A stretch of 64,000 bases of DNA from Escherichia coli (GTDB taxonomy: Bacteria; Pseudomonadota; Gammaproteobacteria; Enterobacterales; Enterobacteriaceae), in NCBI RefSeq assembly GCF_044647545.1, contig NZ_CP172818.1. The stretch is one strand, 5' to 3'. Under the pieces are notes generated by a model. It was not told where the DNA came from. It was given only the letters and a program-made list of their open reading frames with translations, and did not search any database. Made by a program: the position numbers and the translations under genes. Positions 11,579-40,684 of the stretch are shown here, piece after piece; positions within the stretch are counted from its first letter, which is position 1; the number at the start of each line of letters is the position of its first letter.

Positions 11579-12508
11579 TTACTCCCCTTCACCCGGAAAC
11601 AGGAACGGGTTGATGGAACTACGGGCATAGCCTTCTTGCTCCATTCGCGCGTCCAGTACCAGAGAGGCGAGGTCATCTGCCACGGCTTCAACTTTCGGTT
11701 CTTTTTCCTGATAAAGAATCTTCAGGTAAGTGCCGCAGTCATCGCAGCTTTCGGCTTTAATCGCGGCCTGTTCGTCATCCAGCGACCAGTAATGCAGTTT
11801 GCCGCTTTGTTCACAGTTGCTGCATTTTACGCGTACTACGTGCCATTCAGTTTCACACAGGTTGCAGTGCAGGTAACGCAGCCCCTGAGTGGTGCCAATT
11901 TGCACCATGCTGGACACCGGCATAGAACCACAAACCGGGCAATATTGACGTTGTTCGCCATATTCCGCACGCGCTTTGCCGGGGATCAGATTGGCCATCT
12001 GCGCCCAGTAGAGCGACAGTGCAGCCCAGATAAACGGCGCTTTATCGCTGCTGACGGACGAGAAATCAGAGGCAAACAGTGCGCTGGCCATATCTTCCAG
12101 CTCCTGAGTCGATGCCTTCTCCAGATTCTCAATCACTGCCAGCGCCGGGCCGCTCATTTCAGGTTTCAGCTCAGCAATCAGCGCCATCAGCAGCTTTTGC
12201 CAGTGCTTATCACGCGGCAGAACGTGAATATCCAGCGGGGGCTTGCCTTGTGCGCTGGCTTCTTTAATGCGCGTGGTCAGATCCATCTCCAGCGGATGGT
12301 CGTACAGCACCACTTCCTGGGCGTGGGCGATAAGCGCAGCAAAGCGCAGGTAATCACCCAGCGGATTATTTTCTGCCAGCTCGCGCAGACGCTCGGCGCG
12401 GCGGTTGTATAAATTCTTGAGCCGAGGGAACAATAACGGCGGAATCATATCCGCCGTACGTTTCTCGCTCGAACCCAGCTCATCTTGCGGGATTATGCGA
12501 ATACTCAT
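11579..12508 (-). CDS. fdhE: Formate dehydrogenase accessory protein FdhE
   Basis: 309 aa ORF with paired CxxC motifs; synteny downstream of fdoI. Confidence 0.9.
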
Positions 12509-13140
12509 TCAGCTTTCTTTTCCGTTGTCTTGCGGACCTCACGGTACCAGCGCGGGTGATGTTTCTTCGCCCAGGCGCTGGTAACCCATCCTTCCACCAT
12601 GGCGGTAATCGTGCCTTTCACCCAAAGGGCGGCGTAGATATGCACCATGATAACCACAATTAACGCCACTGCGGCAAATGAATGCAGCATTAACGCGAAT
12701 CGGATCACCGGGATTGAGAAAGCAGGTGCAAAATAAGGACGCCAGATAATCACGCCGCTCACCAGCAGCAGAACCAGGAAAATAATCGCCGCCCAGAAAA
12801 CGCATTTCTGACCGAAGTTATAACGCCCGGTGTCACCTACTTCCTCGTTGACGACGATCTTACGAATATTCTTCGCCCAAAAGATATCATCCCGATTGAT
12901 TAGGTTGTGATGCCAGTAACGGAAAAACATGATGATGAACGAGGCAAACATAACCACGCCGACAAACGGGTGCAGAATGCGCGCCAGCTGCGGTGTGCCC
13001 ATGATTTGCATCAACCAGTTGAAGGACGGGAACAAAAAGCCCAGCCCGCTCACCGCCGCCAGGATGAAGCAGAAGGCGGTGATCCAGTGGTTGATACGTT
13101 CCGGCGCGGTGTAGCGCACGATGGTGTCACGTCGTTTCAT
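12505..13140 (-). CDS. fdoI: Formate dehydrogenase-O cytochrome b556 subunit
   Basis: 211 aa membrane ORF; 4-nt overlap with fdhE and fdoH. Confidence 0.9.
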
Positions 13141-14039
13141 TTGCGCTCCTCGTCTTTCTCTTCGTGCAGATTATTCTCTTCCTCATCCGCACGGTTCGGA
13201 CCGACACCCACGTAGTGGAAGATACTGGCCGCAAAGGTAGCCGCAAAGCCAACAGCCGCGAGCGGTTTCCAGATGCCTTTCCAGAATTTCACGGTTTCGC
13301 TGATTTCCGGGTTCTCCGGCAAGCCATGATACAGATTTGGCTTGTCAGCATGGTGCAGCACGTACATAACATGTGTACCACCGACGCCTGCCGGGTCGTA
13401 CAAACCCGCATTGTCGTAACCACGGGTTTTCAGCTCCGCCACGCGCTCGCTCGCCAGCGTTTTCATCGACTCTTTCGTACCGAAGTGAATCGCGCCCGTT
13501 GGGCAGGTCTTCACGCAGGCCGGTTCTTGCCCAACCACCACGCGGTCAACGCACAACGTACATTTGTAGACGCGGTTGTCTTCCGGGTTGAGGCGCGGAA
13601 TGTCGAACGGACAGCCCGCAATGCAATAACCGCAGCCGATGCACTGCTCGGACTGGAAGTCGACGATACCGTTGGCATACTGAATAATTGCCCCTTCCGC
13701 CGGGCACGCTTTCAGGCAGCCTGGATCGGAACAGTGCATACAGCCGTCTTTGCGGATCAGCCATTCCAGTTTGTCGTTCTGCTCCACTTCCGAGAATCGC
13801 ATCACCGTCCACGATTTGGCACTTAAATCATTGGGGTTGTCGTACACCCCAATGTTATTGCCGACGGTATCGCGAATGTCGTTCCACTCTGAACACGCCA
13901 CCTGACAGGCTTTACAGCCGATACAGGTGGTAACGTCGATGAGTTTCGCCACTTCTTCCTGGAAGTCCCGCGCCTGAGGCGCGGGGGTCAGACCGTTAGT
14001 CGCGGAACGACGAATGATATCTTGCGATTGATAAGCCAT
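13137..14039 (-). CDS. fdoH: Formate dehydrogenase-O iron-sulfur subunit
   Basis: 300 aa ORF with multiple CxxCxxCxxxCP ferredoxin motifs. Confidence 0.9.
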
Positions 14040-14051
14040 ATGTCGTCTCCG

Positions 14052-17000
14052 TTACACCTTTTCCACATTCACAAGGAAGGACTTAAACTCCGGCGTCTGC
14101 GTGTTCGCATCACCCACGAATGGCGTTAACGTATTGGCAATAAAGCCTTTTTTCGCAACGCCTTCATAGCCCCAGTGAATCGGAATACCGATGGTATCGA
14201 TATCTTTGCCGTTCGCTTTCAGCGTGCGAATACGTTTGGTCACCACCGCTTTGGCTTTGATATAGCCACGGTTGGAGGAGACTTTCACAGTATCGCCCTG
14301 GGCAATGCCAAGTTTATTCGCCAGCGACTCCCCGATTTCCACAAACTGCTCTGGTTGCAAAATCGCATTCAACAGCGCGTGTTTGGTCCAGTAGTGGAAG
14401 TGCTCGGTCAGACGATAGGTGGTTCCGACATACGGGAACTTATCGGCTTTACCCAATGCTTCGGCGTCGTCTTTAAAGATACGCGCAGCCGGGTTCGAGA
14501 TAACGTTTGGATGCAGCGGGTTAGTTCCCAGCGGCGTTTCAAACGGCTCGTAGTGTTCCGGGAACGGACCTTCCGCCATCTTATCGAGGGCAAACAGACG
14601 TCCCATGCCTTCCTGCTGCATGATAAACGGCCCTACGCCGCTGCCCGGAGGCGCTGCGCTGTAGTCCGGAATATCCCAGCCGGTCCACTTAGTGCCGTCC
14701 CATTTCAGCAACTGACGCTTCGGATCCCATGGGTTACCCTGCGGATCTGCGGAGGCGCGGTTATACAGAATGCGGCGGTTAAGCGGCCATGCCCATGCCC
14801 AGCCCAGCGTGTTACCGAGGCCAGACGGATCGGCGTTATCACGACGCGCCATCTGGTTACCTTCTGGCGTCCAGCTACCGGCGAAAATCCAGCAGCCACA
14901 GGAGGTCGTACCGTCATCGCGCAGTTGGGCGAACGAGCTAAGTTGTTGGCCTTTCTTGACGATAACCGCACCGGTTGCCGGATCGGTAATATCGGCCAGC
15001 GCCTTACCGTTGCTCTCCATCGCCACTTCTTCCGACTTCGGCTCATGCGGAATGGCGTAGTTCCAGGTCATATTCAGCACCTGGTCCGGGTTTGCGCCAC
15101 CCTGTTCGGCATACATCTTGCGCAAGCGCAGGAAGATACCGGAGAGGATCTCGCCATCAGTCAGCGCAATCCCTGGGGCGTCCGCACCTTTCCAGTGCCA
15201 CTGTAACCAGCGACCGGAGTTAACGATTGAACCGTTCTCTTCTGCGAAGCAAGTCGATGGCAGACGGAACACTTCGGTCTGGATCTTCGACGAGTCAACT
15301 TCGTTCAGCTCACCGTGGTTCTGCCAGAAGTTAGAGGTTTCAGTGTTCAGCGGGTCGATGGTGACGAGGAACTTCAGTTTCGACAGACAGCCGATCACTT
15401 TGTTTTTGTTCGGGAATGAGGCAACAGGGTTAAAGCCCTGGCAGATATAGCCATTGACCTTGCCCTCTTTCATCATCTCGAAGTATTGCAGGACGTCGTA
15501 GCCTTTATCCCACTTCGGCAACCAGTCAAAGCCCCAGTTATTTTCCGCCGTCGCTTTATCACCAAAGAAGGCCTTCATCATGGAGACGAAGAATTTCGGG
15601 TAATTGCCCCAGTAGTTAACCTGGCCTTCCAGCAGTGGTTTCGGCGTGTTGGCGGTAAGGTAAGTTTGCAGATCGGTCTGCTTCTCGCTTGGCAACGTCA
15701 TGTAACCTGGCAGACTCTGCGACAGCAGCCCCAGGTCGGTCAGCCCCTGAATATTGGAGTGACCGCGCAGGGCGTTAACGCCGCCGCCAGCCATCCCCAT
15801 ATTGCCGAGCAGCAGCTGGATCATCGCCATCGTACGAATGTTTTGCGCACCAATGGAGTGTTGCGTCCAGCCGAGGGCGTAGAGGAACGACGCTGTTTTA
15901 TCGTGAGCACTGGTTTCGGCGATGTATTCGCAGACTTTCAGGAACGCGTCTTTTGGCGTACCGCAGATGTTTTCAACCACATCTGGCGTATAACGGGAAA
16001 CGTGCTGTTTCAGCAAGTTCCACACGCAACGTGGATGTTGCAGCGTGGTATCGCGTTTGGCGAAGCCGTTTTCGTCCAGTTCGTAAGTCCAGGAGGATTT
16101 ATCGTACTTGCGTTTTTCCGCGTCGTAGCCGGTGAACAGGCCATCTTCAAAGCCGTAATCCTCACGCACGATCAGGCTGGCGTTGGTATAGGCTTCGGTG
16201 TATTCGCGGTTGAATTTTTCATTGTTCAGCAGGTACAGCAATACGCCTGACAGGAAAGCAATGTCAGTCCCGGAACGAATAGGGGCATAGTAGTCAGCCA
16301 CCGCCGCCGTACGTGTAAAGCGAGGATCGATCACAATCAGCTTCGCGCCGTTGTGAATTTTGGCTTCCATCGCCCAGCGGAACCCGACCGGGTGAGCTTC
16401 AGCGGCGTTACCGCCCATCACCACGACGAGGTTGGCATTCTTGATGTCGACCCAGTGGTTGGTCATCGCACCGCGACCAAATGTTGGAGCAAGACTTGCT
16501 ACCGTTGGTCCGTGTCAGACACGCGCCTGGTTGTCGACCGCGAGCATACCCAGCGCGCGGGAGAATTTTTGCGTTAAATAGCCGGTTTCGTTACTCGACG
16601 CGGAAGCACACAGCATCCCGGTGGAGAGCCAGCGGTTAACAGTCACGCCTTCGGCGTTTTGCGCAATGTAGTTCGCATCGCGGTCTTCTTTCATCAGTTT
16701 GGCGATGCGATCAAACGCCTCTTCCCAACTGATTTGTTGCCATTTATCAGAACCTGGCGCACGGTATTCCGGAAACTTCAGGCGGCTTTCGGAGTGGATG
16801 AAATCCACCAGGCCAGCGCCTTTCGGACAAAGTGCTCCGCGGTTGACCGGGTGATCCGGGTCACCTTCGATATGGAAGATAGATGCTTTGGCGTTTTTTG
16901 CTCCGTCACCGAGGCTGTACATCAACAGCCCACAGCCTACGGAACAATAGGTGCAGGTATTACGGGTTTCGCGGGTGCGCAGCAGTTTATACTGCCGGGT

Positions 17001-17102
17001 TTCCGCGAGTGCTACGCTGGGTGCAAAACCCAGTGCCGCTGCCGTGGTGCCTGCCATACCGCCAGCGCAGATCTTAAAGAACTGCCTTCTGCTGACCTGC
17101 AT
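14052..17102 (-). CDS. fdoG: Formate dehydrogenase-O catalytic subunit, selenocysteine-containing (in-frame UGA at 16515-16517), Tat signal
   Basis: ORFs 16515-17102 and 14052-16466 are in the same frame separated only by TGA; context ARV-U-HGPTVA; N-terminal RRQFFK twin-arginine motif; total 1016 aa. Confidence 0.9.
16470..16514 (-). promoter_or_regulatory. Putative SECIS stem-loop immediately 3' of the fdoG UGA
   Basis: mRNA CACGGACCAACGGUAGCAAGUCUUGCUCC follows UGA and contains the inverted repeat AGCAAG/CUUGCU; position expected for bacterial SECIS. Confidence 0.45.
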
Positions 17103-17295: not shown

Positions 17296-18129
17296 GTGAA
17301 AAAAACACAGCAAAAAGAAATCGAAAATGTGACAAGTGTCACAGGTGTTCGTCAAATTGAGTTATGGCGGCGTGATGATTTACAACACCCACGGTTAGAT
17401 GAGGTGGCGGAAGAGGTTCCCGTTGCGCTGGTCTACAACGGCATTTCGCATGTAGTGATGATGGCGTCACCCAAAGACCTTGAGTACTTTGCGCTCGGTT
17501 TTTCGCTTTCCGAGGGGATTATCGAAAGTCCGCGCGATATCTTCGGTATGGATGTCGTTCCTTCCTGTAATGGTCTGGAAGTGCAAATTGAGCTTTCCAG
17601 CCGCCGCTTTATGGGGTTGAAGGAGCGTCGCCGGGCACTGGCGGGACGTACGGGATGTGGCGTGTGCGGCGTGGAGCAACTTAATGACATCGGAAAACCG
17701 GTGCAGCCGCTACCGTTCACCCAGACGTTTGATCTCAACAAACTGGATGATGCATTACGTCATCTCAATGATTTTCAGCCAGTGGGGCAACTGACCGGTT
17801 GTACTCACGCCGCCGCCTGGATGTTGCCATCTGGCGAACTGGTCGGCGGGCATGAAGACGTGGGTCGCCATGTGGCGCTGGACAAACTGTTAGGCCGCCG
17901 GTCACAAGAAGGGGAAAGCTGGCAGCAAGGTGCGGTGCTGGTTTCCAGCCGTGCCAGTTATGAAATGGTGCAAAAGTCAGCGATGTGTGGCGTAGAGATT
18001 TTGTTTGCGGTGTCTGCCGCGACCACGCTTGCCGTAGAAGTGGCTGAGCGCTGTAATCTGACACTGGTAGGTTTTTGTAAACCGGGTCGGGCAACGGTTT
18101 ATACCCATCCGCAGCGTTTGAGCAATTAA
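17296..18129 (+). CDS. fdhD: Formate dehydrogenase sulfurtransferase FdhD
   Basis: 277 aa ORF divergent from fdoG. Confidence 0.9.
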
Positions 18130-40583: not shown

Positions 40584-40684
40584 GCCTGATGCGCTTCGCT
40601 TATCAGGCCTACATGAATTCTGCAATTTATTGAATTTGCAAACTTTTGTAGGCCGGATAAGGCGTTCGCGCCGCATCCGGCATG
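40584..40684. repeat. REP element pair between pfkA and sbp
   Basis: GCCTGATGCGCTTCGCTTATCAGGCCTAC and GTAGGCCGGATAAGGCGTTCGCGCCGCATCCGGC units. Confidence 0.6.

Follow-up and report, generated by a model that had tools for sequence, protein, structure and literature searches.

Escherichia coli has three selenopolypeptide genes, fdoG, fdnG and fdhF (PMC4009273), and these are the three genes of the species with internal TGA codons that encode selenocysteine (Sec) (PMC11903333). The experimentally dissected prototype of the recoding hairpin is the SECIS element of fdhF (Rfam SECIS_2, RF01988), which starts UGACACGG. Published rules for recognition by SelB call for an upper stem-loop at 11 nt past the UGA, with U17, G23 and U24 as the determinants (PMC8659212), and recoding of the UGA competes with release factor 2 (RF2; PMC8124441). 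A selenocysteine UGA with its recoding hairpin in fdoG is thus an already known, textbook feature, and we examine here the instance at positions 16515–16517 of a 64-kb stretch of E. coli DNA, the whole of which we refer to as the window.

The closest described counterpart is fdoG of E. coli K-12 (b3894), the same gene with the same operon neighbours, from which the window's copy differs by strain-level polymorphism only. The paralogous fdnG carries a SECIS of the SECIS_3 family, and although the genes around the element share only 74.5% nucleotide and 77% amino-acid identity, the 71 nt from codon 195 on are identical between K-12 fdnG and the window's fdoG. The fdhF element is like that of fdoG in its opening sequence UGACACGG, its apical stem-loop beginning at nt 15 (here and below counted from the U of UGA), its bulged U17 and the G23 and U24 in its loop, but differs in sequence and in the lower stem. 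The apical stem also differs somewhat, with 7 bp and a 3-nt loop (GUC) in the minimum free energy (MFE) fold of fdoG, and 6 bp and a 4-nt loop (GGUC) in fdhF.

The fdoG frame and its internal UGA

Translation of positions 14052–17102 on the minus strand gives a frame of 1016 codons plus a terminal stop, and codon 196 is the single internal stop. A mechanical list of open reading frames halves the gene at this point, into 195 aa (16515–17102) and 804 aa (14052–16466), both on the minus strand and in the same frame; the N-terminus carries a twin-arginine signal peptide (MQVSRRQFFK...). The first-pass annotation had described a TGA at 16515–16517 in the context ARV-U-HGPTVA, and this is exact, the translation reading AVDNQARV*HGPTVASLA with the codon on the minus strand. 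The interval that it gave for the codon and hairpin, 16470–16517, is also right as the UGA and the next 45 nt of mRNA, once the minus-strand orientation of the gene, which it had left unstated, is taken into account. The features of the locus are collected in Table 1.

Table 1. Positions of the formate dehydrogenase genes and of the UGA recoding elements in the window.
Feature	Position	Strand	Basis
fdoG, catalytic (alpha) subunit of formate dehydrogenase-O	14052..17102	-	Translation, K-12 identity, TIGR01553, 1kqf_A, RefSeq CDS
fdoH, iron-sulfur (beta) subunit	13137..14039	-	TIGR01582, 478.7 bits; RefSeq agrees
fdoI, cytochrome b556 (gamma) subunit	12505..13140	-	NF007924, 453 bits; RefSeq agrees
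fdhE, formate dehydrogenase accessory protein	11579..12508	-	NF002925, 603.5 bits; RefSeq agrees
fdhD, accessory sulfurtransferase, divergent from fdoG	17296..18129	+	TIGR00129, 340 bits; RefSeq agrees
UGA selenocysteine codon, codon 196 of fdoG	16515..16517	-	Reads TCA on the plus strand, TGA on the minus strand
SECIS element, limits of Rfam SECIS_3 (RF01989)	16462..16520	-	84.3 bits, gathering score 63, E 1.4e-18, full model 1-59
Whole hairpin in the E. coli-preferred register: 8-bp lower stem with one bulge, internal loop, apical stem-loop	16472..16512	-	MFE fold of the 48 nt after the UGA
Apical stem-loop GGUAGCAAGUCUUGCUCC, putative SelB-binding part, starting 11 nt past the UGA	16486..16503	-	Folds, pairing in 66 sequences, rules of PMC8659212
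Bulged U17, counted from the U of UGA	16501	-	Unpaired in all folds; invariant in 66/66
Loop G23 and U24	16495 (G), 16494 (U)	-	Fold; invariant in 66/66
71-nt stretch with 100% identity between fdoG (window) and fdnG (K-12)	16450..16520	-	Longest perfect run; next longest 36 nt

The window's gene is 97.8% identical in nucleotide sequence to K-12 fdoG, as against 74.5% to the paralogue fdnG; it is equal in length to the K-12 gene, from which it differs by 68 substitutions and 3 amino-acid differences in 1016. The substitutions fall at third codon positions in 91% of cases and none lies in nt 429–666, the stretch that spans the UGA and the SECIS. With so many third-position changes and so few amino-acid changes, the differences point to purifying selection on both halves of fdoG. 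The order fdhE-fdoI-fdoH-fdoG with a divergent fdhD is the synteny of K-12 fdoGHI-fdhE and fdhD, and among NCBIfam models FdoI (NF007924, 453 bits) fits the gamma subunit better than FdnI (NF007558, 244 bits). These comparisons identify the gene as the fdoG orthologue of E. coli, encoding a subunit of formate dehydrogenase-O and not of formate dehydrogenase-N.

The two fragments abut on one protein profile. On the equivalog model TIGR01553 the N-terminal fragment covers positions 1–194 (271 bits) and the C-terminal fragment positions 196–1009 (1278 bits for this part alone, cut-off 814), such that the UGA falls at the lone position between them, 195. The nearest solved structure is the alpha subunit of E. 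coli Fdh-N (1kqf_A, E = 0), in which a non-standard residue X at position 196 aligns with fdoG codon 196. We take this residue to be Sec196 of FdnG, the established Mo ligand of the Fdh-N structure. In the alignment to 1kqf_A the Sec of the motif RV-U-HGPTVA occupies the position of the molybdenum ligand, and the conserved His comes next.

The hairpin and its SECIS family

The match to SECIS_3 is the sole SECIS match in the 64-kb window, and its E-value refers to a search of the whole window against all 4227 Rfam families. The UGA occupies model positions 4–6, inside the fdoG coding frame, and an element scoring 84.3 bits thus stands directly after the UGA, at the place where a SECIS had been expected in the first-pass annotation. 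Membership in the fdhF-type family SECIS_2 was rejected, its model giving 28.1 bits where the gathering score is 70; because this match is weak, the fdoG element is assigned on its family scores to the fdnG/fdoG type of SECIS.

The anatomy agrees with the published positions of the SelB determinants: the predicted apical stem-loop comprises nt 15–32 (window positions 16503–16486), U17 is bulged, and G23 and U24 lie in the loop. The comparison with fdnG and fdhF that had been suggested earlier for this hairpin comes out in its favour, the sequence being identical to that of fdnG and U17 and G23/U24 standing at the same positions as in fdhF.

Folding energy is much less informative. The 48 nt after the UGA have an MFE of -13.8 kcal/mol with pairs spanning 16472–16512, and a 63-nt segment folds in the same register at -15 kcal/mol, with no excess stability relative to dinucleotide shuffles (z = -0.02). 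Of the 45-nt windows in fdoG, 30% are as stable as the SECIS hairpin or more so, and the MFE of the 59-nt element is matched by 20% of mononucleotide shuffles. We therefore rejected folding energy as a test for a SECIS, given the z score and the 30% of the gene's own 45-nt windows that equal the hairpin. Nor is stability among the curated criteria by which the family is defined. The earlier claim of a stem-loop after the UGA holds in that the hairpin forms (16472–16512), but its stability is no better than chance, and because the fold energy does not rise above chance, the absence of a stable stem-loop is a weak discriminator as a refutation of the Sec reading. On the sequence comparisons described below, the case for the hairpin is carried, decisively in our judgement, by conservation and not by stability.

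The lower stem departs from the family consensus. When the Rfam consensus structure is threaded on the E. coli sequence the energy is only -7.2 kcal/mol, and the lower stem then contains two non-canonical pairs (A.C and A.G). E. coli and enterobacterial sequences are better fitted by moving the pairing register one base away from the SECIS_3 consensus. Across all taxa the two registers do equally well, each with 86% of the lower helix paired, and the register of the lower stem appears to be lineage-dependent.

Conservation and covariation

The fdoG and fdnG genes are 74.5% identical overall and 54.7% identical at third positions, and the perfect 71-nt run between them opens one codon before the UGA. 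Of 5433 E. coli records, 5432 have this 71-mer at 99% identity or better, with 10830 occurrences in all, usually two per genome (one in fdoG and one in fdnG).

For a broader comparison, a pattern scan of species-representative genomes gave at least 120 loci, of which 119 are of the fdnG/fdoG type and one, a Streptomyces locus (L056), was dropped as a chance pattern match; as the pattern fixed the TGA and its amino-acid context, this set informs on the hairpin and not on conservation of the TGA. At least 26 of the loci, in other Enterobacterales genera, have a 59-mer identical to that of the window; among the matches listed the genera include Enterobacter, Citrobacter, Klebsiella, Yersinia, Photorhabdus, Providencia and others. 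For 25 of these identical loci the flanks could be measured, and over 300 nt of flanking sequence their third positions match the window at only 41–86% (mean 60%). Among the matches listed, third positions are 98% identical to the window within the element, versus 59% in the flanks.

We then considered pairing in the 66 distinct proteobacterial 59-mers among the matches listed. The apical helix is 99.4% paired, and two of its base pairs vary by compensatory change: the column pair 21–33 is GC in 52 sequences, AU in 8 and GU in 6, and the pair 24–30 is AU in 46, CG in 18 and GC in 2. Double changes at these two pairs amount to 28 cells, a value reached by none of 500 shuffles, and when the partners were slid as a control, pairing fell to 26–50%. 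The exchanges, A-U to G-C at one pair and A-U to C-G or G-C at the other, are at synonymous sites, with the codons co-varying as GUA/GCU to GUG/GCC and as GCA/CUU to GCC/CUG or GCG/CUC. U17 (alignment column 20) and G23 and U24 (columns 26–27) are invariant in all 66 sequences. The amino-acid stretch HGPTVASLAPTFGRGAMTN is itself strongly conserved; codon choice within it is also restricted, with the Thr codon ACG in 65 of the 66 sequences and the Ser/Gly codon of the loop either AGU or GGU only. Taken together, these patterns argue decisively for a constraint on the fdoG SECIS at the RNA level, beyond that on the protein.

Decoding of the UGA, alternative readings and annotation

The first-pass annotation had tied its reading to the presence of selAB and selC, and at the species level this is borne out: of 5426 complete E. 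coli genomes, 5425 have selAB, 5424 have selC and 5425 have selD. Within the 64-kb window we found no tRNA, and so no selC, and the annotated neighbours include no sel genes; in E. coli the sel genes map hundreds of kb from fdoG, the K-12 copies lying elsewhere on the chromosome. Strain FDAARGOS_497 (NZ_CP033850.1), to which the window is close but neither collinear nor identical, matches the window's fdoG at 100% identity and has a tRNA-Sec (selC).

The in-frame UGA of fdoG is accordingly well supported as a Sec codon by the 1kqf_A alignment, TIGR01553, the SECIS_3 match, the identity of the gene and the Sec machinery of the species, and we consider it almost certain that the TGA at 16515–16517 (minus strand), codon 196, is read as the active-site selenocysteine of formate dehydrogenase-O by the standard SECIS mechanism; none of the observations speaks against this reading. 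The anatomy of the element, its family match, the RNA-level evolutionary constraint and the sel genes of the species are seen directly in sequence. On the strength of what is established for E. coli fdhF and fdnG, and of the literature, we infer SelB binding and Sec insertion at fdoG as follows. The mRNA directly 3' of the UGA would fold into the SECIS hairpin, and the C-terminal domain of SelB would bind its apical stem-loop through the bulged U17 and the loop G23/U24. The selC tRNA(Sec), charged through SerRS, SelA and SelD, would be carried by SelB-GTP, tethered by the hairpin at the approaching ribosome, and Sec would be delivered once the UGA is in the A site, where RF2 competes for the codon.

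Three other readings can be set against this one. If the TGA were a real nonsense mutation, with fdoG a pseudogene or two independent genes, the 195-aa and 804-aa products of a mechanical ORF call would be expected, as would the circulation of both halves as separate proteins in public collections. This is difficult to reconcile with the retention of the gene and of the 71-nt stretch with its TGA at 99% identity or better in 5432 of 5433 E. coli records, or with purifying selection on both halves, as seen in the 91% of K-12 differences at third positions and the 3 amino-acid changes in 1016. The halves are moreover contiguous on a single profile (TIGR01553), the homologous FdnG codon aligns to the non-standard residue X in the crystal structure, and RefSeq has one CDS; we regard a nonsense mutation as effectively refuted, its remaining probability being negligible. 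A different possibility is that the UGA is read through without SECIS or SelB, by near-cognate Trp or Cys, and that the downstream conservation reflects constraint on the protein or gene conversion between fdoG and fdnG. The ordinary stability of the hairpin and the high conservation of the HGPTVASLAPTFGRGAMTN amino acids are in keeping with such readthrough, and conversion would yield perfect identity between two paralogues of one genome. The constraint extends to synonymous sites, however (ACG in 65 of 66 sequences, AGU or GGU only, and 98% versus 59% identity at third positions), paired synonymous positions change jointly, and the covariance model scores 84 bits; the identical 59-mer is also found in other Enterobacterales genera, and conversion within a genome is therefore no explanation. 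Readthrough of this kind seems to us extremely improbable.

It could also be proposed that the UGA and hairpin serve mainly as a point of regulated termination or attenuation, giving a 195-aa product when selenium is scarce. Some truncated product is to be expected, since recoding competes with RF2 (PMC8124441), and the N-terminal 195 aa do include the Tat signal and the cysteines of the Fe-S cluster. The molybdopterin-binding domains sit in the C-terminal part, however, and are absent from the 195-aa fragment, and termination of this type is a side effect compatible with Sec recoding rather than an alternative to it. We give termination as the main role hardly any credence, and selenocysteine insertion at codon 196 stands as the preferred reading.

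Recognition of the UGA as Sec has the practical value of sparing fdoG an annotation as a pseudogene or as two genes, and the locus lends itself well as a positive control for methods that detect Sec and SECIS: stability alone does not reveal the element, which shows up in compensatory changes, frozen synonymous sites and a covariance-model match. The only remaining curiosities are the lineage-specific register of the lower stem, which in enterobacterial elements is one base off that of other Proteobacteria, and a slightly longer frozen stretch in Enterobacterales, where frozen synonymous sites run about 12 nt past the Rfam SECIS model, to 16450. That the longer stretch or the shifted stem represents an extra lineage-specific constraint, such as ribosome spacing or an extended helix enclosing the UGA, is conceivable but doubtful.

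Existing records of the gene vary. In RefSeq/PGAP and in the K-12 record fdoG is one intact 3051-nt CDS and not a pseudogene, and the statement in the first-pass annotation that pipelines commonly mis-call such genes as pseudogenes does not hold for these records; it is right in so far as split halves are common. The exact 195-aa N-terminal half is deposited as a separate protein on at least 1000 contigs, and the exact 804-aa C-terminal half on 487 contigs, with GenBank accessions. What usually goes wrong in annotation is that the gene is divided into two CDSs, and not that it is called a pseudogene. We also note that PGAP labels the window's fdoG as 'fdnG, formate dehydrogenase-N subunit alpha', and that some members of the 195-aa cluster carry the name 'sulfate ABC transporter substrate-binding protein'.

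Pairing register of the SECIS lower stem

In an alignment of 66 distinct proteobacterial 59-mers (A1) covering the SECIS, the recoding hairpin 3' of the fdoG UGA, the pairing register of the lower stem appears to vary between lineages. The best register for the Enterobacterales lower stem, GGACCAAC...UUUGGUCGCG, is one base off that of the Rfam SECIS_3 consensus, and the consensus register suits lower stems of the Pseudomonas/Burkholderiales type, GGCCCGAC...UUUGGCCGUG. We dropped one locus from the scan of species-representative genomes, in Streptomyces sp. ODS25 (L056:466–531), which has no formate dehydrogenase context downstream. Of the 120 matches listed for the 23-nt degenerate pattern (at least 120 loci), it is the sole one due to chance.

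Features in the window, with the basis of each assignment
Feature	Position	Strand	Basis
fdoG locus	14052-17102	-	97.8% identity to K-12 fdoG; fdoH/fdoI neighbours
195-aa N-terminal fdoG fragment	16518-17102	-	protein entries
SECIS lower stem	16472-16514	-	A1 columns 7-16 paired with 41-49
naRNA4 (RF02564)	26358-26606	+	Rfam search
naRNA4 (RF02564)	35524-35601	-	Rfam search
ES036 (CssrF) sRNA	40605-40646	-	Rfam, above gathering score
ClpQY (hslVU) heat-shock promoter element	54298-54355	-	Rfam, above gathering score
L31 ribosomal-protein leader, upstream of rpmE	58967-59019	+	Rfam, above gathering score

Distribution and naming of fdoG

With absences counted gene by gene across the 5426 complete E. 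coli genomes of the ecoli_genomes collection, fdoG/fdnG, selAB and selD were each not found in one genome, and selC in two. Copies on plasmid-labelled records were seen in the same collection at seven places for fdoG/fdnG, two for selD and one for selC.

In RefSeq/PGAP the gene name given to the fdoG locus is fdnG, and its product is called 'formate dehydrogenase-N subunit alpha'. Its neighbours carry fdoH/fdoI names in RefSeq, and the gene is 97.8% identical to K-12 fdoG; the fdnG name is a systematic paralogue mislabel, arising because a single equivalog model, TIGR01553, spans both paralogues. The 195-aa fragment ending at the UGA has its own protein entry on at least 1000 contigs, and its cluster has 195-aa members, in entries for Hafnia alvei and Cronobacter malonaticus, that go under the name 'sulfate ABC transporter substrate-binding protein', evidently an annotation error that has been passed on to UniRef.

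Comparison with FDAARGOS_497 and other Rfam elements

Between 8894 and 59291 the window is 99.6–99.9% identical to NZ_CP033850.1 (the close E. coli strain FDAARGOS_497), with many gap openings (29 in 15.7 kb and 18 in 32.8 kb); past 59291, in the rhsC region, the two cease to align. In NZ_CP033850.1, rhaT is also annotated as frameshifted. These observations suggest homopolymer indel errors in one assembly of the pair. The window at 24526-25116 is about 846 bp shorter than the corresponding FDAARGOS_497 segment, in which a 'carbohydrate porin' gene is annotated at this site, between frvA and rhaM; judged from this alignment, the gene appears to be truncated or missing from the window.

There are five Rfam matches in the window to naRNA4 (nucleoid-associated ncRNA/REP-like elements), four of which form a tandem cluster near the rhaM–rhaD region.
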